Source: Escherichia phage pEC-M719-6WT.2. Taken from it: a stretch of DNA of 64,000 bases. The notes beneath the pieces are model-generated. The model ran no database searches. It was not told the origin of the DNA and was given only the letters and a program-made list of their open reading frames with translations. Position numbers and translations under genes: made by a program. The DNA lies in the sequence record OQ845958.1; one strand, written 5' to 3'. This document shows, one piece after another, positions 26,034 through 52,018 of the stretch. Within the stretch, counting starts at the first letter, position 1. Each line of letters starts with the position of its first letter.

Positions 26034-26045
26034 AATATTTAAAAA

Positions 26046-26078: not shown

Positions 26079-26104
26079 GACTCTATCAACTACTGGAGAA
26101 TAAA

Positions 26105-26422
26105 ATGAAAACCATTGATTGCAAGGCAGAATACAAAGTTTATTATCATGGGTCAAGCTCTAATGCTGGAATCCAAAATATGCTTTGTCCTCCTGATGCA
26201 ACTGGTGTTCTGTCAGAAGTTGGACGTAAGAAAAATTTAGGGCGTGTGTTTTTTACTGAAGATATTGGTTTGGCGCGTATCTATGCAGGAAGAGCAGCTC
26301 GCTCATATGGAGGAGAGCCCCGTCTTTATCGTGTGATTGCACCGGTTGACGTGGTTTGTTTAAATGATACTAAAGGCGCAACAGTTTATCACGCTGCCTG
26401 GGCCTTCTGCGAGGAAATCTAA
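26105..26422 (+). CDS. hypothetical protein with PARP/diphtheria-toxin-like H-G-S motif
   Basis: 105 aa; VYYHGSSSNAGIQNM then GRVFFTED; first ORF of the island after gp41; SD GGAG. Confidence 0.45.
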   Translation: MKTIDCKAEYKVYYHGSSSNAGIQNMLCPPDATGVLSEVGRKKNLGRVFFTEDIGLARIYAGRAARSYGGEPRLYRVIAPVDVVCLNDTKGATVYHAAWAFCEEI

Positions 26423-32587: not shown

Positions 32588-33148
32588 ATGAACATCATCA
32601 AATCTGATACCGAACCCAACCAGTTAAAATTTAGTGAAATGGAGATAGCTTCATTATTTGAATGCCGTACATCAAAGGTTGATAAGACCTTGCATTCAAA
32701 TGTCAACTCAATCATCAAGTCAAGGTTGTCTATACCCGATACAGTCTTGTGGCGCGGGGTAACCCAGCAAGAGATTGATTTATTAGATGAAGCAAAAGAA
32801 TCAATGCAACCTTTTGAATTTGGACGGGTAACCTCCTTTACAGAAGACTATGGTATTGCCAGGGATTTTGCTGCAATGGAATATGTGACAAGGACTATCG
32901 TCAGATTGAATCAGACCAAAGCTTTTTGTTACCATGATGCGATGCGCAAAATCGCACTTGATGTTCCACTTGAATTCTTCAATACAGCTTCTGGTTCCGC
33001 CCAGGCAGCTACATTAAGGCGTGAAGAATACATGGACATGATTGATTCTGAGCTTGAATGGTTTGTTCCAGTTGACCAGAAATTCGTGGTAGTTGATGCT
33101 GGATTTATTGATGATTATTATGTTCTTGACTGTGTACAAGAGCAATAA
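32588..33148 (+). CDS. mono-ADP-ribosyltransferase, ModA/ModB family
   Basis: R-S-E ART signature: LWRG, VTSFTED, ELEW; tandem with next ORF. Confidence 0.6.
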   Translation: MNIIKSDTEPNQLKFSEMEIASLFECRTSKVDKTLHSNVNSIIKSRLSIPDTVLWRGVTQQEIDLLDEAKESMQPFEFGRVTSFTEDYGIARDFAAMEYVTRTIVRLNQTKAFCYHDAMRKIALDVPLEFFNTASGSAQAATLRREEYMDMIDSELEWFVPVDQKFVVVDAGFIDDYYVLDCVQEQ

Positions 33149-33192
33149 GACACGTTAAGATGTTCCTATCAACTACTGATGAGGATAATAAA

Positions 33193-33807
33193 ATGCTGTA
33201 CACTGATGACGTTTTGAATGGAATTATTAACACTGCCGCTTCTAGTGAGTCTTTTCGTAACCAATGTCAAGCGGAGATTGATGCTCTTTATACAGATAAT
33301 GAGCAATCAGTACTCTGGCAGTGTATGGAAAATAAACCTGACCTGATTCAAGAAGACTTGTCCAGGATTATCCGCAACAATCTGAATACTGCACCGCCGG
33401 CAGCATTGTTCCGTGGTATATCAAAGAAAACCATGGAATACCTGGAAGATTTAAGATATGTTGGTGCAACAATTGAATTCAATCGTGTAATGAGTTTTTC
33501 CAGGGACTGGCAGGTTGCAAGAAATTTCGCATCATACAGTTTCTATGGAACAAGGAACATTTTCTGTATAAACAATGCACCATATGCGTATAACTATCAG
33601 GAAGCAATCTTCAAAATGATTTGTGGTGCTCCTCCTGAAGAGTTCAATGGTGCATATCCAGAAGCAACCAGGAAGTCAAACTTGCACCTGGTTAATGATG
33701 AAGATGAGTTTATGTTTCCCGCTGGGACTACGCTCCGCGTAGACTTGATTGAAACACACCCATTGAATAACCTGTATACTGTTTGGCATTTAACTGTTTT
33801 GAACTAA
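33193..33807 (+). CDS. mono-ADP-ribosyltransferase, ModA/ModB family
   Basis: ALFRG, MSFSRD, EDEFMFP motifs; paralogue of preceding ORF. Confidence 0.6.
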   Translation: MLYTDDVLNGIINTAASSESFRNQCQAEIDALYTDNEQSVLWQCMENKPDLIQEDLSRIIRNNLNTAPPAALFRGISKKTMEYLEDLRYVGATIEFNRVMSFSRDWQVARNFASYSFYGTRNIFCINNAPYAYNYQEAIFKMICGAPPEEFNGAYPEATRKSNLHLVNDEDEFMFPAGTTLRVDLIETHPLNNLYTVWHLTVLN

Positions 33808-36542: not shown

Positions 36543-37218
36543 TGCTATTATTGACTTTGAAACTCTGGGAAACGGCTCGAAGGGAGCCGTTATTGACCTG
36601 GCTCTGATTACATTCGAATCTGACCCTGCTATTGTGGAATCATTCGAAACCCTGGTTAATCGCGGCAAACGTATCAAGTTTAGCCTTGAATACCAAAAAG
36701 GTAAGCGTCTGTTCGATACAACAACCATGGGTTGGTGGAAAAAGCAATCAGCAGAAGCCCGTGTTAACTTGGCTCCTTCTGCGCAAGATGTTGATACTCT
36801 GACCGGTATCCAACAGGCAATTGATTATCTGAATGGTAATGGAATTAACAAATACGAAAGCCTTATGTGGTGTCGTGGAATGTCTTTTGACTTCCCGTTG
36901 TTTGTTGACCTTATCCGTGACCTACAGCGCAATGAGGGTATTCCCGAGCGTGAATTGAATACCTATGGCCTGGAGCCAGTTGTATTCTGGAACCAGCGAG
37001 ATATCAGGACAGCAATCGAAGCCCTATCACTCGTCCGTAAGATGTGTGAAACTCCATTACCAAAGGGGACTTTAGATGGATTTGTGGCGCATGATTCGGT
37101 GCATGACTGCGCGAAAGATATTTTGATGCTTAAGTATGCCCAGCGCTATGCTCTTGGTTTGGATGAAGTTCCTTCCGAAGAAGATGCAGACCCGTTATCT
37201 TTACCGAAAAAACGATAA
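36535..37218 (+). CDS. dexA: exonuclease A (DnaQ-like 3'-5' exonuclease)
   Basis: 227 aa, N-terminal DFET exonuclease motif, same length as T4 DexA. Confidence 0.8.
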   Translation: MIDAIIDFETLGNGSKGAVIDLALITFESDPAIVESFETLVNRGKRIKFSLEYQKGKRLFDTTTMGWWKKQSAEARVNLAPSAQDVDTLTGIQQAIDYLNGNGINKYESLMWCRGMSFDFPLFVDLIRDLQRNEGIPERELNTYGLEPVVFWNQRDIRTAIEALSLVRKMCETPLPKGTLDGFVAHDSVHDCAKDILMLKYAQRYALGLDEVPSEEDADPLSLPKKR

Positions 37219-37225
37219 AAAGTAG

Positions 37226-37254
37226 TGTACAAGGCCAATGGAAAGAGACATAAT
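37226..37254 (+). promoter_or_regulatory. early promoter (-35 TGTACA, -10 CATAAT)
   Basis: AAAAGTAGTGTACA, 17-nt spacer, CATAAT, then SD-hairpin motif. Confidence 0.45.
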
Positions 37255-37285
37255 CATCTCATCAACTACTGATGAGGATAACAAA

Positions 37286-37543
37286 ATGATTACTTCTTTT
37301 GAAATTGGCCAACAATATGAAATGTCTGCTCTTCAAGCTGCTGAAGCAGGTCTGACTGAAGCGTTTGAATGTGCATTTACAAATATTCGTGGTAAAATCT
37401 TTACTGTCAATAAAATTGCGGTATATGATAAAGAAACAGACATGAACAAAGGCATCTACTTGAACGTGTCAAACGCAAAAGGCCGTCGTGAAATTATGGT
37501 TGTACAACCTAACCAACTGGCGATGTTCAATAAGGTTACATAA
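37286..37543 (+). CDS. hypothetical protein
   Basis: 85-aa ORF from ATG after SD GAGGA. Confidence 0.45.
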   Translation: MITSFEIGQQYEMSALQAAEAGLTEAFECAFTNIRGKIFTVNKIAVYDKETDMNKGIYLNVSNAKGRREIMVVQPNQLAMFNKVT

Positions 37544-38295
37544 TGAAACCAGAATTTATTGACTTTGATGTTGTAAGCATGTATGTTCGCCCAATTAAAC
37601 CATTAAAACTTGAGAAACAAAATATGACTATTGAAATTAACAAAACTTATCAACTGATTGAACCTATTATTCAAAACGCAGCTATGGTTTCTGGGTATAA
37701 TACTCTGACTGATGCTTTAGGCGAAGGTGAATTTATTGTTGAAACTTTTGTAAAAAGTAACTGGTTTGATAAAGCATATATTTTGCATGCACGTCGCCTT
37801 GATACAAATGAAGTAGAAAAAATTATGGTTTATGAAGCTGAGATTGAACTCTTCAAAGAAGTTGAAGAAACTCCTATCAAAGTTGACAAAACCTATCAAC
37901 TTGTTGGATATGGTGATTTTGATAATACTAATGCATTGAATGCCGGTTGGCGCGTACTGAAAGGTATTTTTGGATTTGCTCCATTTACCGTTAAAACAGT
38001 TAAGTACCACAATCACCAAAGCATCTTTGAATTTACTGCGGTCAATGAATCAGGTGACAATCTTGAAGCCATCCTTTATCCGCGTGAATCTGTACTGCTG
38101 GAAGAAGTTAGCGAACTGGGTGACCCTATTGACTTGTTATGCAAACCAGTTCAAATCAAACGCCCATTTAACAGTTCCATTTGTGGTTGGGTAACAGACC
38201 AGTGGATTGAAGATGGTGTTGAACTCCTGAACGTTGTCCATGCTGGTGAATTTACTGTTGTACCACGTTCTATGGTTGTTGAAATTTTTAATTAA
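37543..38295 (+). CDS. hypothetical protein with internal repeat; C-terminal domain shared with next ORF
   Basis: 250 aa; (N/D)KTYQL repeated twice; C-terminus GWVTDQWIEDGVELLNVVHAGEFTVVP. Confidence 0.5.
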   Translation: MKPEFIDFDVVSMYVRPIKPLKLEKQNMTIEINKTYQLIEPIIQNAAMVSGYNTLTDALGEGEFIVETFVKSNWFDKAYILHARRLDTNEVEKIMVYEAEIELFKEVEETPIKVDKTYQLVGYGDFDNTNALNAGWRVLKGIFGFAPFTVKTVKYHNHQSIFEFTAVNESGDNLEAILYPRESVLLEEVSELGDPIDLLCKPVQIKRPFNSSICGWVTDQWIEDGVELLNVVHAGEFTVVPRSMVVEIFN

Positions 38296-38300: not shown

Positions 38301-38345
38301 AAGTGTACAAACTCTTGGGGTCAGAGTATAATGACCCCACTGGAG
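38301..38345 (+). repeat. promoter/stem-loop cassette copy A
   Basis: AGTGTACAAACTCTTGGGGTCAGAGTATAATGACCCCACTGGAG; 44/45 identical to copy at 49511. Confidence 0.7.
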
Positions 38346-38374
38346 AATAAACTTATTAACCAAGAGAGAAAATT

Positions 38375-38929
38375 ATGAAAGTTGAAGCTGGTGATATTGT
38401 ACGTGTTTCTAAAGAATCTCGTTCTAAAGCTGCTGGTCGTTTTGTTGAGGTTGCGGGTCTTCGCACTAATTTAGTAGGTGGAATTAAAGAAGTTAAAGTG
38501 CGTATCATTCCTAAAAATGGTCAGACTGAAACTCAATTGGCTTATGTGCATCCTAAATTCCTGGAATCAACCGAATTTACTGGATATATCGCTCCTGTGT
38601 CTGAGGAAGTTGAATCCCATGATGGATATGTGTGCGAAAGCAATGATATCCGTGGTGTAATTGCTCAAGACGTTGAAACCATTGACCAGTCTCATGTTGG
38701 GGTTGATTTTAAATGGAAATTGGGCAAAGGTGTCTTTTTTGTTTCACCTAAACCGTTTGAATACAATTGCATGTACGGTCCGACTTATGAAACCACTAGC
38801 ATGTCTGGTTACATCACAGACCAGTGGGTTGAAGAAGGTGTCAAACTGTATAATATCGTATTCCTTGGAACCTTTAAGGTTGTTCCTGAGAGCTTTATCG
38901 TTGAGTATGCCGATATTCATTTTGCCTAA
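38375..38929 (+). CDS. hypothetical protein; C-terminal domain paralogous to 37543 ORF
   Basis: 184 aa; C-terminus GYITDQWVEEGVKLYNIVFLGTFKVVP. Confidence 0.5.
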   Translation: MKVEAGDIVRVSKESRSKAAGRFVEVAGLRTNLVGGIKEVKVRIIPKNGQTETQLAYVHPKFLESTEFTGYIAPVSEEVESHDGYVCESNDIRGVIAQDVETIDQSHVGVDFKWKLGKGVFFVSPKPFEYNCMYGPTYETTSMSGYITDQWVEEGVKLYNIVFLGTFKVVPESFIVEYADIHFA

Positions 38930-38977
38930 ATTATAAAAATGATAGGGTAATTTTGCCCTATCAATGAGGAGAATATT

Positions 38978-39202
38978 ATGTTTAATGAAGATTGTGTGAC
39001 CACTTCCCTGACTGCTGAAGAGTTTTGGGACACTGCCGAAAGTGATAAAGTGATTGTGAAGAAAAACATCAATGAATTTCTTTGCACCACTGATATCATT
39101 TATGTGTATGCAGACAAAGACGCAGAACTACCTAGCTATGCGCTGTTCCGCGAAGAATCAGAAGATGGTACAGATTTTTGGAAGGAGATTTATAATGTCT
39201 AA
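38978..39202 (+). CDS. hypothetical acidic protein
   Basis: 74-aa ORF with SD GAGGAG. Confidence 0.4.
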   Translation: MFNEDCVTTSLTAEEFWDTAESDKVIVKKNINEFLCTTDIIYVYADKDAELPSYALFREESEDGTDFWKEIYNV

Positions 39203-39566
39203 ATTTGAAACTGATAAGTGGTATTATTTTAAAGATAATGTTGCTGAAAGCAGATTCCGTTTGTTATGCACAGATAATGATAATATAGCCAATGCTATAA
39301 TCAATGGCGAGGGATTTAGACCAGTCAGAATTGAAGATGGTGATGTGTATAAAATGGAATTATCAACTGGTGAATTTGTGAGCCTATTCATAAAGGAAGA
39401 CGAATTCCGTTTCTTTGAAGAAGAAAAAGATGACGATACTGAAGATGAATGCGAAGACGCAGCTCCATCTGAGCCAAGCGAATTCCCTTTGACTAAAATC
39501 ACCATCTCTAATAACTCCGAAGCCTGGACCGTTTACCAGATGTTGAAAGCACACTTTAAGGAATAA
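39195..39566 (+). CDS. hypothetical acidic protein
   Basis: 123-aa ORF from internal ATG. Confidence 0.4.
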   Translation: MSKFETDKWYYFKDNVAESRFRLLCTDNDNIANAIINGEGFRPVRIEDGDVYKMELSTGEFVSLFIKEDEFRFFEEEKDDDTEDECEDAAPSEPSEFPLTKITISNNSEAWTVYQMLKAHFKE

Positions 39567-39567
39567 C

Positions 39568-39744
39568 ATGCCACTTTATGATTACAAATGTCAATCCAAT
39601 GACTGCGCGAAAGAATACGAAAAAATCAAGAAAATCTCTGAAAGAGATAATGATGTTTGTCCTGATTGCCATCGGCTGGCTGTTCGGTTAGTCTCGGCCC
39701 CTAAACATGTTAATGGCGGTTTTTACGACCTGCTGACTAAGTGA
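39568..39744 (+). CDS. zinc-ribbon protein (FmdB-like)
   Basis: 58 aa, YDYKCQSNDC...CPDCH paired CxxC motifs. Confidence 0.45.
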   Translation: MPLYDYKCQSNDCAKEYEKIKKISERDNDVCPDCHRLAVRLVSAPKHVNGGFYDLLTK

Positions 39745-39750
39745 GAAATT

Positions 39751-40011
39751 ATGAAATACATTAATCGTTCTATTGCAGCGCTGGTGCTGGCGGTTTCATT
39801 AGCTGGTTGTACTGATGCAGATAACGCCATTCGTGTATTAGATGCAAACGGCTATGAGCAAATCCAAATCACCGGATATAATTGGTTCTCTTGTGGTAAA
39901 GATGATTTCCAACACACAGGCTTTACGGCCGTGGGTCCAACTGGTAAGAAAGTTGAAGGAACTGTTTGTTCTGGTTTGTTGTTCAAGAATTCAACCATCC
40001 GATTTGAATGA
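39751..40011 (+). CDS. putative lipoprotein
   Basis: Signal peptide with lipobox LAGC. Confidence 0.45.
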   Translation: MKYINRSIAALVLAVSLAGCTDADNAIRVLDANGYEQIQITGYNWFSCGKDDFQHTGFTAVGPTGKKVEGTVCSGLLFKNSTIRFE

Positions 40012-40018
40012 GGATATT

Positions 40019-40420
40019 ATGTTTAAAATTGGAAAGAGTTATTGCATTAAAGATTTAGATGGCTTCCTTAAACATGTCGGTATGCCCGGTTGCATTTTGA
40101 ACCAGCAAGGAACCTCTATCATTGATTTGATTACTACCAAAGAGTTTTCAGTCACCAAGATGGAAGCAAATGTTGTGACGGAATTTAGTACTATCGATGG
40201 AACTGGATTTTCTTTCCATAGTCGTAATGGAACCGGTCTTATTTTTGGTGATGAATTTAAATATTTTGAAGAAACCCCAAAGGAATGTGATTCTGAAATA
40301 ACCGAACAGGAATCAAAAGAGGATATTGTTGTTACCGGTGGCGATGTTATTATTACGGTTAAAACTGAAGCCGGGCGCCTACAAGCTATTAAAATGTTAG
40401 AGCAGCTTCGATTCAAATAA
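40019..40420 (+). CDS. hypothetical protein
   Basis: 133-aa ORF with SD GAGGA. Confidence 0.45.
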   Translation: MFKIGKSYCIKDLDGFLKHVGMPGCILNQQGTSIIDLITTKEFSVTKMEANVVTEFSTIDGTGFSFHSRNGTGLIFGDEFKYFEETPKECDSEITEQESKEDIVVTGGDVIITVKTEAGRLQAIKMLEQLRFK

Positions 40421-40439
40421 AAGGCCTTCGGGCCTTTTT
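40421..40439 (+). terminator. intrinsic terminator AAGGCC-ttcg-GGCCTT + TTTTT
   Basis: UUCG hairpin plus T-run. Confidence 0.6.
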
Positions 40440-40463
40440 GCTTTAAAATATGTGACTTATAAT
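40439..40463 (+). promoter_or_regulatory. MotA-dependent middle promoter (TGCTTTA box, 12 nt, TATAAT)
   Basis: Canonical MotA box upstream of gp39. Confidence 0.5.
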
Positions 40464-40485
40464 ACCTCCATACACAAGAGGAAAG

Positions 40486-42318
40486 ATGATGATTAATAAT
40501 GAAATTAAAGTACTCTCGGACGTCGAGCATATCAAAAAACGTTCCGGGATGTATATTGGTTCCAGTTCAAATGAAGCGCATGAGCGATTCTTGTTTGGTG
40601 AATATAAGTCCGTAAGCTATGTTCCTGGTATTGTAAAACTGATTGATGAAATTATCGATAACTCTGTTGATGAAGCAATTCGCACCAGTTTTAAATTTGC
40701 CAATAAAATTGATGTCCAAATTAAAGATAATCAGATTTCGGTTTCCGATAATGGCCGTGGTATTCCACAAGCAATGGTTACAGACCAAAACGGTGAACAA
40801 ATCCCTGGCCCGGTTGCAGCATGGACTATTCCAAAAGCAGGTGGTAACTTCGGTGATGATGCTGAACGTAAAACTGGTGGGATGAATGGCGTCGGGTCTT
40901 CTCTGACCAATATTTTCTCTGTATTGTTCACCGGGATTACTGCCGACGGCACAAATGAAATCACCGTTAACTGCTCCAATGGTATGGAAAACAAAGGTTG
41001 GTCTACCAAGAAATCTAAGGGTAAAGGTACAACTGTTATTTTTGTTCCGGACTTCAGTCACTTTGAAGAAAATAGCCTGTCCCAGATTTATCTGGATATT
41101 ACATTGGACCGTCTGCAGACTCTTGCGGTTGTTTATCCGGATATTCAGTTTACCTTTAATGGTAAAAAGGTTGATGGCAATTTCAAGAAGTTCGCCAAGC
41201 AATTCGGAACCGAAGTTGTTATCCAGGAAACTGATACAGTATCGATGGCCTTTACGACTAGCCCGGATGGTTTCCGCCAGTTGACTTATGTCAACAACAT
41301 TCATACAAAGAATGGTGGGCACCACGTTGAATGTGTTATGGATGATATCTGTGAACATCTTCAGCCAGCCATTAAACGCAAATATAAAGGCATTGAGGTG
41401 ACAAAGGCACGAGTTAAAGAATGCCTCACCATGCTTATGTTCATTCGCGATATGAGCAACATGCGATTTGATTCCCAGACTAAGGAGCGATTGACTTCTC
41501 CGGCTGGTGAAATTCGAAATCACATTAAGATTGATGCCAAGAAAATCGCACAAGCTATTCTGAAAAATGAACCACTGATTATGCCGATTGTTGAAGCTGC
41601 ATTAGCCCGTAAATTGGCTGCAGAGAAAGCAGCAGAGACCAAGGCGAATAAGAAAGCTTCAAAGGCCAAGGTGCAAAAGCATATCAAGGCCAACGAATGG
41701 GGCAATGATAAGCTGGAAACGACTCTATTCCTGACCGAAGGTGATTCTGCAACCGGTCCATTTATCAAGGTCCGCGACCGTGAATTACAAGGTGCTTATC
41801 CGTTACGTGGTAAGTTCAAAAACACATGGGGTCTGAAAGCTGTTGACGTTATGAAGAACGCCGAAGCCTTTGATGTGTGTGCGATTACTGGTTTAACGAT
41901 TGGACAACCGGCCGAGAATATGAATTACCGAAACATTGCTATCATGACAGATGCGGATGTGGATGGTGTCGGTAGTATCTATCCATCGTTATTGGCGTTT
42001 TTCAGTAACTGGCCAGAGCTGTTCCATGAAGGACGAATTCGCTTTGTGAAAACTCCTGTTATTATTGCGCAGCTCAAAGATAAACAAGAATGGTTCTATT
42101 CTCTTCCTGACTATGAAGAAGCTAAGGATAAACTTCCGAAGCACACCATCCGATATATCAAGGGGCTTGGTTCTCTGGAAGATGCCGAGTACAAACGCGT
42201 ATTGCTCGAACCAGTATTCGAAGTTGTTCAATTGCCCGACAACTGGAAAGAACTGTTCGAAATGCTCTTCGGTAAAGATTCCCAGCAGCGTAAAGATTGG
42301 ATGAATGCGACACTATAA
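40486..42318 (+). CDS. 39: DNA topoisomerase II large subunit gp39 (GyrB-like), fused 39+60 form
   Basis: 610 aa single ORF with GHKL ATPase and TOPRIM regions; no separate gene 60. Confidence 0.93.
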   Translation: MMINNEIKVLSDVEHIKKRSGMYIGSSSNEAHERFLFGEYKSVSYVPGIVKLIDEIIDNSVDEAIRTSFKFANKIDVQIKDNQISVSDNGRGIPQAMVTDQNGEQIPGPVAAWTIPKAGGNFGDDAERKTGGMNGVGSSLTNIFSVLFTGITADGTNEITVNCSNGMENKGWSTKKSKGKGTTVIFVPDFSHFEENSLSQIYLDITLDRLQTLAVVYPDIQFTFNGKKVDGNFKKFAKQFGTEVVIQETDTVSMAFTTSPDGFRQLTYVNNIHTKNGGHHVECVMDDICEHLQPAIKRKYKGIEVTKARVKECLTMLMFIRDMSNMRFDSQTKERLTSPAGEIRNHIKIDAKKIAQAILKNEPLIMPIVEAALARKLAAEKAAETKANKKASKAKVQKHIKANEWGNDKLETTLFLTEGDSATGPFIKVRDRELQGAYPLRGKFKNTWGLKAVDVMKNAEAFDVCAITGLTIGQPAENMNYRNIAIMTDADVDGVGSIYPSLLAFFSNWPELFHEGRIRFVKTPVIIAQLKDKQEWFYSLPDYEEAKDKLPKHTIRYIKGLGSLEDAEYKRVLLEPVFEVVQLPDNWKELFEMLFGKDSQQRKDWMNATL

Positions 42319-42321
42319 ATA
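42314..42321 (+). promoter_or_regulatory. late promoter TATAAATA overlapping gp39 stop
   Basis: Exact consensus, then palindrome ACGGGAGAAT/ATTCTCCCGT and SD AGGAGAAG. Confidence 0.45.
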
Positions 42322-42360
42322 GATACGGGAGAATATTCTCCCGTCTTATAGGAGAAGTCC

Positions 42361-42513
42361 ATGAAAAAGTGGTGGGTTACGTTGTCAAATGGCGAATACG
42401 GTTATCTGTGGGCCGATACTAAACCTCTGTTTGCATCCTTTGTCACCATTATGTGCGAGACTTGGGATGGCGAATACTATACCGCATATGGGCAAGTCTA
42501 TAAAGTTGAGTAG
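42361..42513 (+). CDS. small Trp/Tyr-rich protein, late-promoter driven
   Basis: 50-aa ORF flanked by TATAAATA and intrinsic terminator. Confidence 0.35.
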   Translation: MKKWWVTLSNGEYGYLWADTKPLFASFVTIMCETWDGEYYTAYGQVYKVE

Positions 42514-42516
42514 CCA

Positions 42517-42539
42517 AAAGGACCTTCGGGTCCTTTTTT
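42517..42539 (+). terminator. intrinsic terminator AAAGGACC-ttcg-GGTCCTTT + T-run
   Basis: 8-bp stem, UUCG loop, TTTTTT. Confidence 0.65.
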
Positions 42540-42589
42540 ATTATGTACAAGCCACAAAAATTGCGTTAAGATATCCTTGAGGTGAACAT

Positions 42590-42874
42590 ATGATTATGTC
42601 TGACGGAAGTTTAGTTAATCTGCAGAATGTTGCACGTTGTATTATGGAAGCAGGTCTGAGGAAGGTACAGGAGCTCCCAGATAGCGACAGGAAGCGAAGT
42701 TACTTGTTGGCTGTAAGAGCATCAGCCATGAGCATTAAGGCTGGCCAGAAGGTTCCTGAGGAGCGAATTGAAGCACTCCTTGCATTGATATACCATGGCC
42801 AAGAACATAAAGCTACCATGCGTAGTATGAGAAAAATATTGCAGGAGATTGGAAATGACAAACTTCAAAGTTAA
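42590..42874 (+). CDS. hypothetical protein
   Basis: 94-aa ORF with SD GAGG. Confidence 0.4.
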   Translation: MIMSDGSLVNLQNVARCIMEAGLRKVQELPDSDRKRSYLLAVRASAMSIKAGQKVPEERIEALLALIYHGQEHKATMRSMRKILQEIGNDKLQS

Positions 42875-43058
42875 TATGGAACTGTTTGATAAAGCTGTCC
42901 ATAAAGAATACCGTGTTATCCAACGATTTTTTGATATAAGAGAAGCTGAAGAGTTTAAAGAACGCTTCAAAGAAATCCGTATTAAAATAGCTTCAGACAC
43001 CGCAACAAAGGATGAACTTCTTGAAGTTGCAGAATTAATCAAACGTAACATAAAGTGA
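42855..43058 (+). CDS. hypothetical protein (rIIA.1 position)
   Basis: 67-aa ORF. Confidence 0.4.
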   Translation: MTNFKVNMELFDKAVHKEYRVIQRFFDIREAEEFKERFKEIRIKIASDTATKDELLEVAELIKRNIK

Positions 43059-43065
43059 GAAAAAC

Positions 43066-45300
43066 ATGATTTTAGAAACTGAAAAGGAAACAATCCTTGG
43101 TAATGGTGCCAAGGCATCAGCATTCACAATCCAGGCATCTCCAAAGGTGTTTAAGATTCTGACCAGCGACCTTTACACAAATAAGGTGCGTGCAGTTGTT
43201 CGTGAGCTGATTACCAATATGATTGATGCTCATATGCTCAATGGTTGTCAGGATAAATTCATTGTTCAAGCTCCTGGTGAACTGGACCCACGCTTTGTGT
43301 GTCGTGACTTTGGTCCAGGTATGAGTGATTTCCAGATTCGTGGTGATGAAAATACCCCAGGTCTGTATAACAGTTTCTTTGCATCATCCAAGGCTGAATC
43401 CAATGATTTTATTGGTGGCTTTGGTCTGGGTTCTAAATCTCCGTTCAGTTATACAGAGACGTTTAGCCTGATTTCGTATCATGATGGTCAAGTTAATGGT
43501 TATGTCGCTTATATGGATGGTGATGGTCCACAGATTAAGCCAACCTTTAGCGAACCAATGAAACCTGGCGACCGCACAGGGATTGAAGTTGTTGTCCCGG
43601 TTGATAGTAATGATTTTGGTAAGTTCCGCCACGAGATTGCATATATCATGCGTCCATTTGCTGGACTGGCTGAAGTACAAGGCGTAGGCGAAATTAATTA
43701 TTTCCCGGAATTTGATGATTATTATGCTCCAGAGCGTATTAATTATAGCAGCCCAGAACGTTATGGTCTTTATGCAATTTACGGTGGAATTGTTTATCCA
43801 ATTGCCGACGGTTATACAAAGAAAACCTGGATGACTGCCAAAAATGATGTTGTCTTTATTAAGTTCCCGATGGGTTCGTTGGATATTGCACCTTCTCGCG
43901 AAGCATTATCACTGGACAAACGTACGGTCGCAAATATCGTTGAACGTATCGAATCCCTTGATAAGAAAGTCATGGAAGATGATTGTAAGAAATGGCAGGA
44001 ATCAGAATGTATCCGCCACACGTATCGCGAATTACAGAGTCTGAGTTATGAAGCTCGTAATTTTCTGAAAGCTCGTAATGCTGAAACGAAATTTACGAAA
44101 TCGCAATTGACCTTTAACCAGATGTATGAAATGTTCGAGCTGGACAAAGACCTTATTAATGCCGGGGTTGTCTATGATATCTATAGCACTACCCGTCTGA
44201 AACGTCTGCGTAACTCAAGCTCGAACACGAATACTGCAAGCCTGACGAGCATGTTTGGTATTCAGAATAATACCTTGAACATTGTTATTGACGATGCTAA
44301 AGGGCGAATTGCGATGATTCGGGGCATCAGTTCAATGCTGTATGACACCAGCGCGAAAGCCAAAAAGCTCAAAGCATCTGGTAAAGTCCCGACTGTACAA
44401 GGTAGTAGTCTATTGTTCGTTGACCCAACCAGCGAAATTCAAACACGTCTGATGGTTCAACTTCAAGAACGATTTAAAGGCGATACAGTTAATATCTATC
44501 GTACGTCTGAACTGACCGCCCTTGTAAAAGACTGGATTCCGGTTGCTGACCCGAAAGCGCGCGTTAAGTCAAAGACTCCATCATTGATTCGTTGGACTAA
44601 AACCAATGGCAAATGGCAGTCTGTTGAAGAATTTACATGTGCAGCTGATGCAGAGGAAATCGATGGTTATGCTGTATTCATTAACCGCAGTAGCATTTCC
44701 CCGTTGAATCAGGATTATGGCGTCACGAACTTCGGGACCCAGACATTGTGTAAACTGGCAAACCTGTTGGAAATCAATGAATTCTGTGTTATTCGTCCAC
44801 AGCTTCAGAAAAAGATTACCAAGCTGGCGCAGTGTGATTGTCTGATTGAAGCTGCAGTCAATCGTTATGTGGAATTGATTGATGCGGTTGATGCGGACCA
44901 GTACATTGCCGCTTCAAGCCGTTCGCGTTATTATATTCCTATCCTGTCTGAATATGCAGAACTGAATTTTATGTTCAAGTATTTTTATGCAAAAGATGTT
45001 CAGAAAGATGTGAATACTGACTATGCCGAATTAATGCAGTTCAATAAGTTCTTTGCTTATAACGCATATAACAGTGGAACAGTTGATAAGACCATGCAGG
45101 AAACTCTGGTCCTTTGTAATAAGATTTATGACGACCTGACCAAAAACGCTTCGGTAACAAGCGATAAAATGGTTTTTGAATTTGAAAAGAATCACCCGAT
45201 TGTTTCACACTTTTTATATAACCGTAACGCCATGTCAACTGAACAAGTACAGAACGTTGCTCAAATCATGAAGGCCGTGGAAGCGGCCAATAAGGAATAA
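43066..45300 (+). CDS. rIIA: rIIA membrane-associated protein
   Basis: 744 aa, N-terminal GHKL-like motifs, adjacent to rIIB as in T-even phages. Confidence 0.88.
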   Translation: MILETEKETILGNGAKASAFTIQASPKVFKILTSDLYTNKVRAVVRELITNMIDAHMLNGCQDKFIVQAPGELDPRFVCRDFGPGMSDFQIRGDENTPGLYNSFFASSKAESNDFIGGFGLGSKSPFSYTETFSLISYHDGQVNGYVAYMDGDGPQIKPTFSEPMKPGDRTGIEVVVPVDSNDFGKFRHEIAYIMRPFAGLAEVQGVGEINYFPEFDDYYAPERINYSSPERYGLYAIYGGIVYPIADGYTKKTWMTAKNDVVFIKFPMGSLDIAPSREALSLDKRTVANIVERIESLDKKVMEDDCKKWQESECIRHTYRELQSLSYEARNFLKARNAETKFTKSQLTFNQMYEMFELDKDLINAGVVYDIYSTTRLKRLRNSSSNTNTASLTSMFGIQNNTLNIVIDDAKGRIAMIRGISSMLYDTSAKAKKLKASGKVPTVQGSSLLFVDPTSEIQTRLMVQLQERFKGDTVNIYRTSELTALVKDWIPVADPKARVKSKTPSLIRWTKTNGKWQSVEEFTCAADAEEIDGYAVFINRSSISPLNQDYGVTNFGTQTLCKLANLLEINEFCVIRPQLQKKITKLAQCDCLIEAAVNRYVELIDAVDADQYIAASSRSRYYIPILSEYAELNFMFKYFYAKDVQKDVNTDYAELMQFNKFFAYNAYNSGTVDKTMQETLVLCNKIYDDLTKNASVTSDKMVFEFEKNHPIVSHFLYNRNAMSTEQVQNVAQIMKAVEAANKE

Positions 45301-45301
45301 T

Positions 45302-46273
45302 ATGTTTAATATCAAATGTATGTCTAAAGCCGAACAAGCTGATGTGGTCCAGATGTATTCAACGGGCAATTATACCCAGCCTGAATTGGCAGAATATTTT
45401 GCTGTGTCCGTTGACACCATTCGCCGCGTTTTGAAAAATGATAAAGAATCAAAATTAGCTAAAACCATTTCTGCATCACTGAAAGCAGCTGTTGGTGTGG
45501 CGATTAATGCTCCGGTGACAGTAACGGTTGAAGTCCCGGTTGCTGATACAATCGGCGGTAGCCGCCCGGAAATCGTATGGAACGCATCAAGCAAATTCGT
45601 TTCCATCACCGAAGGTCGCACGGTCTGGAACGCAACAAAAGACCATAAACACTTTAATGATATTATTCAGGCACTCAAAGAATCTCGTTTTGACGATGCT
45701 ATCGAGTTTATCTCAATCAAAGCTGCGGTGCAAAAATATGTGAAAGGTGATGTGCGTATTGAAGGTGGTAGTCTGTTCTATCAGGGAATTGAACTGCGCT
45801 CTGGTTTGGTTACTCGTATCATTGATTCAATGCAAAATGGTGAAGATTTTGAATTCTATCTGCCGTTCCTTGAGAATCTCCTTGAGAACCCGAGTGAAAA
45901 AGCAGTACAGCGTTTGTTTGACTTCCTGGTTGCTAACGATATCGAAATCACCGAAGATGGTCATTTCATCGCCTGGAAAATGGTTCGTTCAACCTACAAA
46001 GATTGTCACTCAAACACATTCGACAACAGCCCTGGCCAATATGTTAAAATGCCACGCTCTCGTGTGAATGACAATGACGAACAAACCTGTTCAACTGGGC
46101 TGCACGTTTGTTCTAAAGGTTATATCGGAAGTGGCTTTGGTCATGGTGATGGGCGCATCGTATCCTGTAAAGTTCACCCGCGCGATGTTGTAAGTATCCC
46201 GGTGGATTATAATGATTCAAAAATGAGGGTTTGTGGTTACCTGGTTCTTGATGATGTAACTGAACAATTCTAA
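45302..46273 (+). CDS. rIIB: rIIB protein
   Basis: 323-aa ORF immediately after rIIA. Confidence 0.82.
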   Translation: MFNIKCMSKAEQADVVQMYSTGNYTQPELAEYFAVSVDTIRRVLKNDKESKLAKTISASLKAAVGVAINAPVTVTVEVPVADTIGGSRPEIVWNASSKFVSITEGRTVWNATKDHKHFNDIIQALKESRFDDAIEFISIKAAVQKYVKGDVRIEGGSLFYQGIELRSGLVTRIIDSMQNGEDFEFYLPFLENLLENPSEKAVQRLFDFLVANDIEITEDGHFIAWKMVRSTYKDCHSNTFDNSPGQYVKMPRSRVNDNDEQTCSTGLHVCSKGYIGSGFGHGDGRIVSCKVHPRDVVSIPVDYNDSKMRVCGYLVLDDVTEQF

Positions 46274-46306
46274 ATTAATCGGGGCTTCGGCCCCTAATGA
46301 GGCTTT

Positions 46307-46504
46307 ATGTTAGGTTTCCAAGCACGTGTAGTTGAAGAATATGACCAGCTGGTTTTGAAAATCAATGCTCTTGAAGAGTTTATTAAGGGTGGTGTTTTTG
46401 AAACTCTTGATATCCGTCAACAAGGTCTTTTGATTGCCCAACTGGATGCGATGGGCGCATATGCTCATGTACTGGCAATCCGTATCTCTTATTTTGGTGA
46501 ATAA
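46307..46504 (+). CDS. hypothetical protein
   Basis: 65-aa ORF after GGGGC-ttcg-GCCCC hairpin. Confidence 0.4.
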   Translation: MLGFQARVVEEYDQLVLKINALEEFIKGGVFETLDIRQQGLLIAQLDAMGAYAHVLAIRISYFGE

Positions 46505-46507
46505 ATT

Positions 46508-46828
46508 ATGATTAACTATATGAACGTTGGCGATGAATCTATTAACGAAATCCGGTTGCATGGTAATCATGTTGCGGATATTGTTTATTGTGTGGATTGT
46601 CATTATGCTTCTACAAAGTCAACTGGGCGGTTATATGCGAGGGACATCATTCTTGCAACGAAAGAAGAACTTCGTAGTCTGGACCATTCTACACTAGCCG
46701 AAAGTGCCAGAATTTATTATGGCGTCGTTCATGTGGACAAAGTTTATATTGGCAGCGATTATCAAGAGCAAGCTGAGCAAAATTCTTTAGATATTGTCGA
46801 AAAATCCGATATGTATTTTAAAGGATGA
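46508..46828 (+). CDS. hypothetical protein
   Basis: 106-aa ORF. Confidence 0.4.
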   Translation: MINYMNVGDESINEIRLHGNHVADIVYCVDCHYASTKSTGRLYARDIILATKEELRSLDHSTLAESARIYYGVVHVDKVYIGSDYQEQAEQNSLDIVEKSDMYFKG

Positions 46829-46832
46829 CATT

Positions 46833-47426
46833 ATGATTCAGAAGAGTAAAACATGGGAGCATCTGAAAAAGATGCCCTCCTTTCTTTATACAAAAGAAGA
46901 CTTAACCCCCGAATCCCTGCAAAAGATTGTAGACACTGCCAGGTATTCATTGCGTAAAGACCCTGGTCAGGACCGTGAGCAAGTCATGCAAAGATGTATG
47001 GTGGCTACAATGGCTGAACAAGCTATTGCTAAATGGACCTCCGGTTTTTTATGTGGTGGCGATGAAGATTACGATAATCCTTATTCCTTTGCATTTGATG
47101 TAGTTTCGAAGGAAGGGGTAAGAATCGAAGTCAAGACCCATCAGTCTGGTTCCAAATGGATATCCGTGCACACTGGCAGCCATGGCGATTACCCACACGG
47201 TTACGGAGTTAATCTTGGCCCTTTTATGCAGCACAAGCTTGCTGACCTTATGATTATGTTTAATGTAAAAGAGACTATCAAAGGTTATAGATTTAAACCA
47301 AAATTCCTTGCTGGGCCGGGTGCTTTCGTTCCTGAGTCTGGTCTTGTGCAGAAGTCACAAGGGGATGGCTGGTACCTCCGTTCTTGTTCAGAAGAAAAAT
47401 TTCCCTATCACCGGTTTACAAGCTGA
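46833..47426 (+). CDS. putative PD-(D/E)xK-like nuclease (DenB position)
   Basis: 198 aa; AFDVV...RIEVKT resembles D...ExK motif; lies between rIIB and ndd where T4 has denB. Confidence 0.35.
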   Translation: MIQKSKTWEHLKKMPSFLYTKEDLTPESLQKIVDTARYSLRKDPGQDREQVMQRCMVATMAEQAIAKWTSGFLCGGDEDYDNPYSFAFDVVSKEGVRIEVKTHQSGSKWISVHTGSHGDYPHGYGVNLGPFMQHKLADLMIMFNVKETIKGYRFKPKFLAGPGAFVPESGLVQKSQGDGWYLRSCSEEKFPYHRFTS

Positions 47427-47473
47427 ACCAACCATGTAATAATGTCCTCACACCAACAAATGAGGACATTATC

Positions 47474-47749
47474 ATGGAACACGTTACTACTAATAACATC
47501 AAACAAATTCTTATTCAAGCACTCAAAAACAACAACATCAATTTTCCAACCCATGAAATTTTTGATGTAGTATTCAACGAAGTCCAGGGACAAGTTGCCT
47601 ATTATGACGTTATCATTTATCTTTCAGAATTTGAAGTCTACCACCTGACTGAAATCGCTTTCTATCTCTATCGTGGAACAGCAGATTTTACTGGGGTCGT
47701 GAATGCAGTTGGTGCATATAAAGAAGTTAAAGAACAAATGCACAATTAA
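47474..47749 (+). CDS. hypothetical protein
   Basis: 91-aa ORF preceded by 9-bp hairpin ATGTCCTCA/TGAGGACAT. Confidence 0.4.
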   Translation: MEHVTTNNIKQILIQALKNNNINFPTHEIFDVVFNEVQGQVAYYDVIIYLSEFEVYHLTEIAFYLYRGTADFTGVVNAVGAYKEVKEQMHN

Positions 47750-47752
47750 TCA

Positions 47753-47806
47753 AAAAGTAGTGTACATCAGTATGGAGTCTATGTATAATGATTCCATACT
47801 GAGTTA
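47753..47806 (+). promoter_or_regulatory. early promoter cassette (-35 TGTACA, -10 TATAAT, hairpin CAGTATGGA/TCCATACTG)
   Basis: Copy of the AAAAAGTAGTGTACA...ATAATGATTCCATACTGAGTTA cassette; 17-nt spacer. Confidence 0.5.
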
Positions 47807-47991
47807 CCAAATACTGGAGAATAAAATGAAACCTGCTCAATATGCAATGACTTTATACCTTGAAGTTAATGGCGATATTACTGAATTTTTTAAATTAATG
47901 CAACAGCGTGGAAAAAGTTTTGCAGTTACTGAGCGTCAATTTTACGCATGTCGCAAAAATACATACAATCGTTATGCATGAGGAAAATAAA

Positions 47992-48258
47992 ATGGATATT
48001 AAATTATACTACGCCAAACACAAAGTTACAGGTATGGTTGTTGCTGCTATGTATGATGCATCAGGTGATGGTGATGATGTTACCACAGAATTGTCTCTTT
48101 CTGATTGTAAATTTCTTCGTCCATTGATTGCATCAAAGGAAGATTTAAAAAAGCTTATTGATGGAAAACTGGATAATGTTGATGGCATAGATATTCTTTA
48201 TGACCTTCGCACTGCATTGTACAGAGGATTGATTGAAATCAAAGAGGTGATATTTTGA
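47992..48258 (+). CDS. hypothetical acidic protein
   Basis: 89-aa ORF. Confidence 0.4.
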   Translation: MDIKLYYAKHKVTGMVVAAMYDASGDGDDVTTELSLSDCKFLRPLIASKEDLKKLIDGKLDNVDGIDILYDLRTALYRGLIEIKEVIF

Positions 48259-48349
48259 GCAGCAAAACCTGGTGCCTTATCTGGATGCTGTGTATCCCAG
48301 TAATTTGCGTTTGTTTTAGTTTATTATTAATGAAACTTGCATAAAAGAG

Positions 48350-48377
48350 TGTACATCTCCAGTGGTTGTAGTATAAT
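48350..48377 (+). promoter_or_regulatory. early promoter (-35 TGTACA, -10 TATAAT) within hairpin ATCTCCAGT/ACTGGAGAT
   Basis: 9-bp stem pairs the post -35 sequence with the SD region. Confidence 0.45.
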
Positions 48378-48530
48378 GAACCTATCAACTACTGGAGATG
48401 ATTATGAAAAAGTTACTTAAAGCCATTTGGAACATGTTTGTACTGTTTGTTGTCCTGAGCATTTTCCCAATTGTTTTTATGATTGACCATGTGCGTGTTT
48501 ACTTTAACTATTTCTTTTGAGGATAATATT

Positions 48531-48737
48531 ATGAATTACAATTCACAATTTCAGAAATCCAATCGTCGCTTTGACTTTATGTTCAAGTTTATTGTGGCGA
48601 TGATTATCCTGATTTTCATTGGTGCCATTGCAATGATTGGTTTCCAGCTCTGGATTGCTGCTGAAGTGTTCACACAAATCCAGGATAATGGTTTGAAGTC
48701 TGTTGTTGATGTAATTTGGAATGGAGCTAAGCAATGA
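48531..48737 (+). CDS. small membrane protein
   Basis: 68 aa with one TM helix; SD GAGGA. Confidence 0.4.
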   Translation: MNYNSQFQKSNRRFDFMFKFIVAMIILIFIGAIAMIGFQLWIAAEVFTQIQDNGLKSVVDVIWNGAKQ

Positions 48738-48979
48738 AACTTTTTAAAGACATTGCAGTTGGTGAAAAATTTGTCCTTGGTAATGGTCAACAACTGATTC
48801 GCATTTCGCCTTTAATGGATAACAGCGAGCGCCCTGTGCGCACTGAAAACTGTTTGGATTATCCTTTTTATCAGAAGCGTTTTGCAATTGAAAATAATAC
48901 TGAGTGCTTCACGGTTGATGAACTGATGGAATCATCAGAAGAAGTTGACTTGTGGGATGGCGCGGTAGACCCTGAATAA
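48734..48979 (+). CDS. hypothetical protein
   Basis: 81-aa ORF, coupled. Confidence 0.4.
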   Translation: MKLFKDIAVGEKFVLGNGQQLIRISPLMDNSERPVRTENCLDYPFYQKRFAIENNTECFTVDELMESSEEVDLWDGAVDPE

Positions 48980-49168
48980 ACTGAGGAAAATATTATGGAC
49001 AATAGAATTTATAAAGTAAAGCTTCATGGTAAAGTGATTAAAACTCTTAGTTTTAATGCGTATATTAGCGCAAATTGTGCGCGGGATATCCTCATTGAGG
49101 AAGGTTACAGCAAGTACATTCAGATTGAAGAAGTTCTTTAAAAAGGTTTACTTACTGGGGAAAATATT

Positions 49169-49513
49169 ATGTCTAAAGTATTTTTTGGTAATGCTAAAGT
49201 TATGTTCTTTAAACAGATTAGCCTTCAGGAGGCGTCGGAGGCATTCAATCAAAGTATGATTCCTGACGTACATCCAAAAGTTATGACGAGTGCTGATTTC
49301 GTTTTCGTCCAAGACCCGGAAACAGGCTTTTATCGGTTCATTAAATTTCGTATGAGTATGGAGCCAGGTTATCATAGTGCTTACTACGTGAGTTATGAAA
49401 ATGTTATCAAAGAATTGCGTAATACCTATAAGCGCGCTTTGACCCCGCTGAATAAGGTGTATAATGCTTCCTTTTATACGAGCGGATTTATTTTAGAACA
49501 GCTTCAAAAATAG
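49169..49513 (+). CDS. hypothetical protein
   Basis: 114-aa ORF. Confidence 0.4.
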   Translation: MSKVFFGNAKVMFFKQISLQEASEAFNQSMIPDVHPKVMTSADFVFVQDPETGFYRFIKFRMSMEPGYHSAYYVSYENVIKELRNTYKRALTPLNKVYNASFYTSGFILEQLQK

Positions 49514-49555
49514 TGTACAAACTCTTGGGGTCAGAGTATAATGACCCCACTGGAG
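49511..49555 (+). repeat. promoter/stem-loop cassette copy B
   Basis: TAGTGTACAAACTCTTGGGGTCAGAGTATAATGACCCCACTGGAG; drives ndd. Confidence 0.7.
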
Positions 49556-49586
49556 CAAAAAACTTTAACTTACTGAGGAAATTAAT

Positions 49587-50036
49587 ATGACTACTTACAT
49601 GACCCGTCGTGACGTACTGAATGCTGGTGCTACCACTGTTGCTTATATCCATAATGGTAATTATGTTGCCGGTCGCCCAACTAAAGAAGCTATCACTCAA
49701 CCAGGTTTTTATTTCGTGGTTAAAGGTGAAGGTGAATCGCGTATTGTTGCCGCACGTTTTTATGTTGGTAACCAACGTTCACAACAAGGGTTTGACACTG
49801 TATTAAGTCACATCCGCAAACAGCGTTCTCAACTGTCTCGCACAATGGCGAACAATGGGGTTATCTATGAAGTCCTGTTTGTCCCAGTTTCTAAAATGAA
49901 ACCTCTGACAACTGGTTATGGTAAAGGTCAAATTGCAATGGCGTTCACTCGCTCGCATAGTTCTGATTGCCAGACCCTTTCAGAAATGAATCGCATGCTT
50001 GCTGATAACTTTAAATTCATTCTGCAGAGCTATTAA
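49587..50036 (+). CDS. ndd: nucleoid disruption protein Ndd
   Basis: 149 aa; [23 protein letters not shown]...MKPLTTG.GKGQ...[12 protein letters not shown] matches remembered T4 Ndd. Confidence 0.85.
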
Positions 50037-51916: not shown

Positions 51917-51932
51917 TTTTAAAATATTTTAA

Positions 51933-51986
51933 AAAAGTAGTGTACATGACCCTTGACCTGATGCATAATGATTCCATACTGAGTTA
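51933..51986 (+). promoter_or_regulatory. early promoter cassette (-35 TGTACA, -10 CATAAT, conserved GATTCCATACTGAGTTA)
   Basis: Third copy of the AAAAAGTAGTGTACA cassette; 17-nt spacer. Confidence 0.5.
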
Positions 51987-52018
51987 CAAACTGAATCACA
52001 AAAACTTTGGAGAATAAA

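Follow-up and report, generated by a model that had tools for sequence, protein, structure and literature searches.

The 64,000-nt stretch of Escherichia phage pEC-M719-6WT.2 analyzed here (OQ845958.1; hereafter, the window) contains two identical copies of a short intergenic cassette, combining an early-type promoter with a hairpin, one upstream of motB and the other upstream of ndd. The source phage is T4-type and belongs to the genus Gaprivervirus (SP18 group); the stretches compared show 98-99% identity between the window and both Yersinia phage vB_YenM_P8 (P8) and Escherichia phage EAWsc9, and identity to SP18, VR20, VR25, and VR26 amounts to 90-96% in the dexA-motB stretch used for comparison. 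In the window and its relatives, the gene order is motB.1, cassette, motB, followed further on by gene 39, rIIA, rIIB, and denB, and then by the second cassette and ndd, with the 11 kb separating the copies including cef, goF, gene 39, rIIA, rIIB, and denB. Copy 1 (38302-38345, + strand) occupies the motB.1-motB intergenic region and is orthologous to the early promoter of T4 motB, while copy 2 (49512-49555, + strand) lies 5' of ndd. A preliminary description of this DNA had reported a 45-bp element occurring twice with one mismatch, and this was confirmed in the form of a 44-mer, AGTGTACAAACTCTTGGGGTCAGAGTATAATGACCCCACTGGAG, that is exact at both positions with 0 mismatches and is preceded by a single base that differs between the copies (A at 38301, T at 49511). 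The 44-mer had 0 matches in 100 dinucleotide-preserving shuffles with up to 3 mismatches tolerated.

The gene downstream of copy 1 (38375-38929, + strand, 184 aa) is motB, based on its match to Pfam PF17613 (E = 5.5e-49) and its annotation as motB in relatives, and its ATG at 38375 is preceded by a Shine-Dalgarno (SD)-like GAGAG at 38364-38368. Downstream of copy 2, the 149-aa product of the gene at 49587-50036 (+ strand) matches PF06591, Phage_T4_Ndd (E = 9.6e-69), with an SD, GAGG, at 49575-49578 and the ATG at 49587. The preliminary description had correctly recognized that the second copy precedes ndd, but had copy 1 driving an unknown paralogous open reading frame (ORF), which is in fact motB, its partial paralogue being the upstream motB.1. 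This motB.1-like gene (37543-38295, + strand, 250 aa) ends 6 nt before copy 1, and the two genes are partial paralogues in tandem: over its C-terminal 38 aa, the motB.1-like protein is 53% identical to the MotB C-terminus, with 79% DNA identity over 48 nt (38178-38225 versus 38800-38847). A tract of about 50 nt within motB (38617-38667) could not be aligned with SP18, VR20, VR25, or VR26, marking a small internal replacement or indel. Upstream of copy 2 is a 114-aa ORF (49169-49513, + strand) with no Pfam family, the stop codon of which overlaps the copy.

Both copies share a single anatomy, that of copy 2 being that of copy 1 shifted by +11210. In copy 1, a -35-like TGTACA (38304-38309) is followed by a 17-nt spacer and a -10 box, TATAAT (38327-38332), which is situated inside the 8-nt loop of a hairpin with arms GGGGTCA (38317-38323) and TGACCCC (38332-38338). 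The corresponding parts of copy 2 are the -35 box at 49514-49519, the 5' arm at 49527-49533, the -10 box at 49537-49542, and the 3' arm at 49542-49548, and in both copies the final T of the -10 box is also the first base of the 3' arm. This arrangement had been proposed in the preliminary description and was found in both copies. The predicted transcription starts, at approximately A38339 and A49549 (about 7 nt past the -10 box), sit just 3' of the 3' arm. A/T-rich tracts precede the -35 boxes of copy 1 (TTTTTAATTAAATTTAA; upstream-gene stop codon at 38293-38295) and copy 2 (CTTCAAAAATAG; upstream-gene stop TAG at 49511-49513).

With the TGTACA box, 17-nt spacing, and TATAAT box, each copy is predicted to be a strong sigma-70-type early promoter, and both scored 10/12 in a promoter consensus scan, placing them among the top-ranked sites. 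A stricter early-promoter pattern (T[GT]TAC. or TTGAC., 16-18 nt, and a near-TATAAT box) detected 12 early-type promoters on the + strand of the window compared to 1 on the - strand, several of which have hairpins over the -35 box, spacer, or -10 box. The T4 motB promoter, AGTTTACAAACTCTTGGGACCAGAGTATAATGGTCCCGTGGAG, is orthologous to copy 1, and the T4 motB.1-motB intergenic region, AGTTTACAAACTCTTGGGACCAGAGTATAATGGTCCCGTGGAGTATAAAATC, has the same spacer (ACAAACTCTT), the same loop (GAGTATAA), a hairpin in the same place, and a GGAG plus A-rich tract beginning 2-3 nt past the stem. In contrast, the T4 stem is GGGACCA/TGGTCCC, with two compensated pairs, altered on both sides relative to the window motB stem (G-C to A-T and T-A to C-G), the -35 region reads GTTTAC in T4 and GTGTAC here, and the cassette is single-copy in T4. 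No such promoter is found upstream of T4 ndd, where a different hairpin (GGCCG...CGGCC) is followed by TTGGAGTAGAAAA; in this region (L003 3560-3600), GGAGTAGAAAA lies 2 nt after the hairpin, giving the appearance of a decayed half cassette in which the hairpin and a RegB-type site (described below) have been kept. More broadly, both the ACAAACTC(T/G)T of the spacer and the GAG of the loop have been kept across Tequatrovirus, Mosigvirus, Kanagawavirus, and Gaprivervirus. Use of the T4 motB promoter is documented (figure legend, PMC1702504). The literature was searched for maps of T4 start sites or terminators on a genome-wide scale, but nothing usable was returned, and the case for promoter activity in vivo in this phage is consequently an extrapolation from the T4 motB literature.

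In the predicted RNA folds of the two intergenic regions (-19.3 and -19.5 kcal/mol; z = -2.8 and -2.6), the hairpin is the dominant element. Its covariation was evaluated in 12 distinct cassettes from GenBank phage records, representing five genera and fDHCT2 (genus not recorded): the motB, ndd, ndd-upstream, and 55.x loci of Gaprivervirus, motB of Tequatrovirus, 55.x of fDHCT2, ndd and one other locus of Mosigvirus, ndd of Kanagawavirus, and motB and ndd of Dhakavirus. The arms seen were GGGGTCA/TGACCCC, GGGGCCA/TGGTCCC, GGGACCA/TGGTCCC, GGGAGCA/TGTTCCC, GAGAGCA/TGCTCTC, GAGGACA/TGTCCTC, AGAGCCA/TGGCTCT, and AGAATCA/TGGTTCT. Across this 7-pair helix, 98.8% of cells were paired and five of the seven pairs had changes on both sides, with 19 compensatory cells, and the resulting covariation score of 0.665 compared with 0.265 in shuffled controls (0/500 as high) and 0.08-0.22 in slid controls. 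The -10 box was exactly in the loop in 12/12 variants, with the arm positions fixed relative to it. The three non-Watson-Crick pairs were all G.U or U.G on the + strand, and A.C pairs were absent from the 12 cassettes. Given that wobbles occur only on the + strand, with no A.C pairs, this comparative evidence indicates that the hairpin is under selection for base-pairing on the sense strand. Such pairing fits an RNA hairpin in read-through transcripts, a hairpin in the non-template DNA strand being less likely, and suggests that the hairpin has an RNA-level role. A scan of IMG/VR with a degenerate cassette pattern returned six loci only, all from VR20, VR25, and VR26, and added no diversity, and a search of the whole window against Rfam found no family at the gathering threshold.

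Because the predicted start lies past the 3' arm, transcripts initiated at a cassette would not contain the hairpin, while read-through transcripts from the motB.1-like gene would contain that of copy 1. The hairpin resembles an intrinsic terminator in its G+C-rich stem-loop and its position at a gene end, but no T-run was found 3' of the stem in any family member examined (in the window copies, ACTGGAG comes next). The terminator scan omitted both copies, although it does call true terminators at 42516 and 51893, and an intrinsic terminator was rejected on these grounds.

The GGAG motifs at 38342-38345 and 49552-49555 lie 30 and 32 nt, respectively, 5' of the ATGs, and the SD-like motifs GAGAG and GAGG are found 6-8 nt before the ATGs. 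The assignment of GGAG as an SD in the preliminary description was rejected due to this distance; visual inspection revealed no start of a small ORF 3' of either GGAG. The motif is most likely an RNA-cutting RegB/S1 site rather than a ribosome-binding site, as judged by its sequence. The RegB/S1 target is the 11-mer GGAGRAYARAA, with an optimum of GGAGAAUAAAA and no C at positions 5, 6, or 9 (Durand et al. 2006, PMC1702504). The T4 motB leader is a model RegB substrate, and the minimal substrate ends in GGAGUAUAAAA, which is cut efficiently by RegB/S1 in vivo and in vitro (PMC1702504); this GGAGUAUAAAA is the GGAG located 2 nt past the T4 hairpin. In the motB leader of the window, the RegB/S1-type site GGAGAATAAAC (38342-38352, + strand) begins at +4 of the predicted transcript, and its 11-mer, GGAGAAUAAAC, matches the consensus at 10/11 positions, with 6/7 for the 7-mer AATAAAC. 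The site in copy 2, GGAGCAAAAAA (49552-49562, + strand), is weaker, with a 9/11 match and 5/7 for the 7-mer CAAAAAA against RAYARAA, including a disfavoured C at position 5.

A GGA(G/U) followed by an A-rich tract, matching the RegB consensus at 8-10 of 11 positions, was found 3' of the 3' arm in all family members examined, beginning 1-3 nt after the arm (8 nt in one), and GGAG or GGAU was present in 17/17 sequences (16 family members and the T4 ndd hairpin). The sites share with known RegB sites the invariant GGA, the G/U at position 4, the A-rich 7-mer, and their location in the intergenic leader of early genes, but most known sites are SDs, whereas the two in the window, at 30-32 nt 5' of the ATG, are of the 5'-leader class. 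Other early-promoter cassettes hold, in their leaders or SDs, most of the remaining strong RegB-type sites on the + strand of the window. The predicted probability that the site is unpaired was 0.52-0.58 in the promoter-proximal transcript compared to 0.03-0.06 in read-through RNA, a masking by the hairpin that the Gaprivervirus and T4 members are predicted to share and the Dhakavirus and Mosigvirus members are not. The regB gene lies outside the window and is annotated in the type species, SP18. RegB cleavage, known only for the T4 orthologue, would by analogy be expected in this phage.

These cassettes correspond to the promoter-early stem-loop (PeSL) elements of T4-type phages, in which a sigma-70-like promoter follows an A/T-rich tract and is accompanied by a stem-loop, frequently with runs of G and C, ahead of an SD and an ATG (PMC2839356, PMC4122927). 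PeSL stem-loops are most often located in the interval from the -35 to the -10 box or over the -10 box, and GGGG...CCCC stems are included among them (PMC2839356). By this definition, the likeness to mobile T4-type promoter-stem-loop cassettes noted in the preliminary description is upheld, the copies belonging to the -10-overlapping subclass. They are intergenic, with an A/T tract, a near-consensus sigma-70 promoter with 17-nt spacing, a G-run/C-run stem-loop over the -10 box, and an SD and ATG downstream, and, like PeSLs, they recur many times along the early strand, at positions where close relatives differ by insertions, deletions, and replacements. In contrast with PeSLs, the cassettes here have no T-run after the stem, making terminator function doubtful, and 11 kb of sequence with core genes, rather than a small ORFan, separates their identical copies, making mini-circle excision implausible. 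Linkage to a RegB site and hairpin covariation are also absent from the published description. The region upstream of ndd has been singled out as a site of PeSL exchange between T4 and PST (Comeau et al. 2014, PMC4122927), and no description of PeSLs in the SP18 group was found in the literature searched.

To trace the identity of the two copies, each intergenic unit was divided in two, the core extending from -38 to GGAG and the leader from GGAG to the ATG. The motB and ndd units of the window are 100% identical in the core and 67% identical in the leader, whereas the motB units of the window and AnYang are 60% identical in the core and 97% in the leader. The ndd units of the window and AnYang are 61% identical in the core and 82% in the leader, and the motB and ndd units of AnYang are 75% and 65% identical, respectively. 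Each of the two AnYang cores is thus closest to the other, its identity to the remaining cores compared being 60-66%. The promoter-hairpin cores therefore group by genome and the leaders by locus, and this opposite clustering bears the signature of concerted evolution, through gene conversion or cassette swapping, limited to the promoter-hairpin core. Arms are also shared across loci within lineages, with GGGGTCA at three loci of the window, GGGACC at T4 motB and fDHCT2 55.x, and GAGAGCA at two Mosigvirus loci.

The direction of exchange can be approached through the alleles of the two sites. The window's arms are present in every Gaprivervirus ndd copy read (the window and six relatives), while VR7, VR25, VR26, TH15, and PSD2001 have a different motB-site allele, GGGGCCA/TGGTCCC, which is 90-92% identical to the Tequatrovirus motB cassette, compared to 84-86% for the window's allele. 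At stem position 5, outgroup motB sites (T4 and AnYang) have a C-G pair, and the Gaprivervirus and AnYang ndd sites have T. The most economical reading is that conversion probably proceeded from ndd to motB in part of the genus. Hairpin promoters are found at both the motB and ndd sites in Dhakavirus as well, at the motB site in T4, and at the ndd site in Mosigvirus and Kanagawavirus, which argues for homogenization or swapping of a pre-existing core rather than fresh insertion. The suggestion of recent duplication or recombination in the preliminary description is accordingly supported for recombination, by the genome-wise clustering of cores, the second motB allele, and the mosaic joints described below, but not for the insertion of a new copy.

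Both copies coincide with mosaic breakpoints between close relatives. Relative to P8, the window is 96-100% identical up to 48950 and again from the ndd cassette onward, with a swapped segment between, in which the 114-aa ORF (49156-49511) has just 50-80% identity in 50-nt blocks. This ORF is a divergent allele, the result of a replacement bounded by cassette positions. In P8, SP18, and VR26, the counterpart of the 114-aa ORF has cassette copies at both ends, and in P8 the divergent ORF lies between two family cassettes 412 bp apart, the classical geometry of a PeSL module. The window and EAWsc9 contain a 48-aa ORF (48995-49141), in place of which P8, SP18, and VR26 hold a third cassette, GGGAGCA/TGTTCCC; this ORF (region 48979-49171) is flanked by near-identical 18-nt repeats, ACTGAGGAAAATATTATG and ACTGGGGAAAATATTATG, that provide SD and ATG contexts. 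A piece homologous to the 48-aa ORF region sits elsewhere in VR20. At copy 1, the window is 90-96% identical to VR25 up to the cassette, and identity drops to 55-78% over the 5' portion of motB, in which VR25 resembles Dhakavirus. None of the relatives examined showed a deletion or rearrangement involving both copies; the short DCP80 record (141 kb) is probably incomplete.

Taken together, we consider it probable that the pair are copies of one composite PeSL-type cassette, consisting of an early promoter, a hairpin, and a RegB/S1 site, and that their identity arose by exchange between dispersed cores and has been preserved by constraint. In this model, the sigma-70 promoter, with its A/T-rich upstream tract, TGTACA box, 17-nt spacing, and TATAAT box, would start transcription of motB or ndd at approximately the A after the hairpin. 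The 7-8 bp G+C-rich hairpin, lying 5' of the cassette's own start, would be present as RNA only in read-through from the upstream gene, where it would likely serve as a barrier or attenuator and as a protected 3' end for the upstream message, rather than as a classical intrinsic terminator, given that no T-run follows it. The GGAG and A-rich 11-mer, starting 3 nt past the hairpin, would be a target of RegB and ribosomal protein S1 that marks the early transcript for cleavage and decay. Homologous exchange between dispersed promoter-hairpin cores, most likely from the ndd site to the motB site, would have produced the 44/44 identity, and constraint on almost every position would then have kept the cores identical, while the short homologies of the cassettes would serve as joints for the exchange of neighbouring genes between related phages.

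Several points weigh against parts of this model. The direction of conversion depends on few outgroup states, and direct recombination between the copies, by deletion or as a mini-circle, would lose the topoisomerase gene 39, leaving no viable phage, and none was observed. Conservation of the core is high between genera and, at the ndd site, within the genus, so that the 44/44 identity could be old and kept by constraint rather than recent. For promoter use, the start site, and RegB cleavage, the model relies on extrapolation from T4, and copy 2, with its C at position 5, is the weaker RegB match. The cassettes of the covariation set were hand-collected from BLAST hits, and sense-strand wobbles fit a hairpin in the non-template DNA strand as well as an RNA hairpin. 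Finally, the terminator half of the PeSL definition finds no support in the sequence, with neither a T-run nor a call in the scan.

The age of the identity is where the strongest competing account arises, in which the cores acquired their identity in a single event, no later than the Gaprivervirus ancestor, as an old duplication frozen by purifying selection with no recent exchange, functional constraint acting on nearly all positions of the -35 box, spacer, stem, -10 box, and GGAG. The ndd-site core is invariant in the window and six Gaprivervirus relatives while its flanks are down to 50-89% identity, implying that constraint alone could preserve an older identity, and the conservation of the spacer and the loop GAG over four genera is consistent with such constraint. 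However, two motB-site alleles, three linked stem changes apart, coexist within the genus, and cores cluster by genome in Dhakavirus too, with arms shared between loci in the Tequatrovirus and Mosigvirus lineages. The coexisting alleles and genome-wise clustering require repeated exchange, rather than a single event, and we consider the frozen duplication unlikely. At the other extreme, an assembly or sequencing artefact, with the repeat collapsed or copied by the assembler, has nothing in its favor beyond the capacity of short exact repeats to confuse assemblers, and its probability is negligible. The identical pair, with locus-specific flanks, is also found in the independently sequenced P8, EAWsc9, SP18, and VR20, and orthologous cassettes are present in T4, Dhakavirus, and Mosigvirus; misassembly, which had been raised in the preliminary description, was rejected on this basis.

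Other alternatives concern what the paired arms do. A DNA-level inverted repeat could form a hairpin or cruciform at the -10 box in supercoiled DNA, aiding opening or attracting nucleases or recombination, with the RNA hairpin being incidental. The -10 box in the loop in every variant, the fixed arm positions, and the coincidence of cassettes with recombination joints are compatible with this, covariation shows pairing but not which molecule pairs, and a GGGG/CCCC stem has been speculated to be a possible recombination target (Arbiol et al. 2010, PMC2839356). On the other hand, the three G.T or T.G wobbles are on the sense strand only and in a cruciform would leave the opposite strand with A.C mismatches, a stem of 7 bp around an 8-nt loop makes a poor cruciform, and short homology suffices for T4 homologous recombination with no special structure required, all of which leave this reading improbable. 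The palindrome GGGGTCA...TGACCCC might otherwise be an operator, bound by a dimeric phage or host regulator that shuts off early promoters and with which the arms co-evolve. Its overlap with the -10 box is a classic repressor position, the arms are identical at three loci of the window (9464, 38317, and 49527), and arms are lineage-specific in other genera, but single genomes (VR25, VR26, P8, and SP18) mix the arms GGGGTCA, GGGGCCA, and GGGAGCA, the wobbles break the palindrome on one strand yet keep pairing, and variation with compensation at 5/7 positions is typical of structure and not of sequence-specific recognition, making an operator very improbable. A more far-reaching proposal, which we regard as rather unlikely in its entirety, is that the cassette is a tripartite mobile module of early promoter, -10-straddling hairpin, and RegB/S1 site, homogenized among loci within each genome, in which the hairpin gives one DNA two RNA fates. 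In cassette-initiated RNA, the RegB site would be at a free 5' end and would be cut, timing the decay of the message, while in read-through RNA, the hairpin and pairing between CUCU and GGAG would hide the site and cap the upstream message.

The PeSL element class and the T4 motB orthologue are already known; what is new here is that the hairpin covaries, that the core shows concerted evolution genome by genome, that a RegB site is constantly linked to it, and that both copies lie at mosaic breakpoints between close relatives. The pair provides a natural example of T4-type phages keeping and moving small regulatory cassettes, in which the core evolves in concert within each genome, the served genes and their leaders evolve by descent, and the cassettes mark the joints of neighbouring-gene swaps. 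The covariation is the first comparative, non-experimental support, found here, for selection of a PeSL stem as a sense-strand structure, and the constant pairing with RegB/S1 sites ties PeSLs to programmed early-mRNA decay. A point for annotation is that a GGAG found just 3' of an early promoter of T4 type is not necessarily a ribosome-binding site. If the hairpin does give one DNA two RNA fates, PeSLs would be post-transcriptional insulators, beyond being linkers of promoter and terminator.

A third, partial copy (9464-9485) had been missed in the preliminary description. This family member (9464-9497, + strand; region 9449-9498) contains GGGGTCAtgGTATAATGACCCC at 9464-9485, with arms GGGGTCAT/ATGACCCC the same as those of the pair around an extended -10 box, TGgTATAAT (9472-9479), and GGATAATAAAA after the arms at 9487-9497; the family -35 box and spacer are absent. 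The orthologous site of fDHCT2 holds a complete family cassette, and that of T4 holds none. Tequatrovirus phages match the ORF 5' of the third copy at 93-95% nucleotide identity to approximately 9436, and in fDHCT2, the one ortholog aligned, similarity drops from the cassette onward.

Other repeated promoters were also observed. A second early-promoter family (8326-8401, 21780-21855, 26041-26116, 33124-33199, 37217-37292, and 48371-48420) has the leader CATCAACTACTGATGAGG/GGAG and a CATCA...TGATG inverted repeat just 5' of, or over, the SD, and some copies have a terminator-like AAAAAGGGG..CCCCTTT hairpin on the -35 box. A pair of 59-nt promoter cassettes (47752-47810 and 51932-51990) are 81% identical and both precede perfect RegB-type SDs, GGAGAATAAAATG, the former with a long hairpin, CAGTATGGAGTC/GATTCCATACTG (-19.3 kcal/mol), across its -10 box. 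A segment of approximately 400 bp before gene 39 (40014-40408), containing a small ORF, is present in the window, EAWsc9, and SP18 and absent from P8, VR20, and VR25. In LF82-1 (L013 3010-3085) and AnYang (L014 2330-2400), the spacer of an early promoter contains an anti-SD, CTCCTC, that pairs with the downstream SD GAGGAG (-24.6 and -19.5 kcal/mol, respectively), and the predicted folds suggest that the SD would be sequestered in read-through RNA and free in locally started RNA, an arrangement resembling the classic cases of T4 e, soc, and gene 49.

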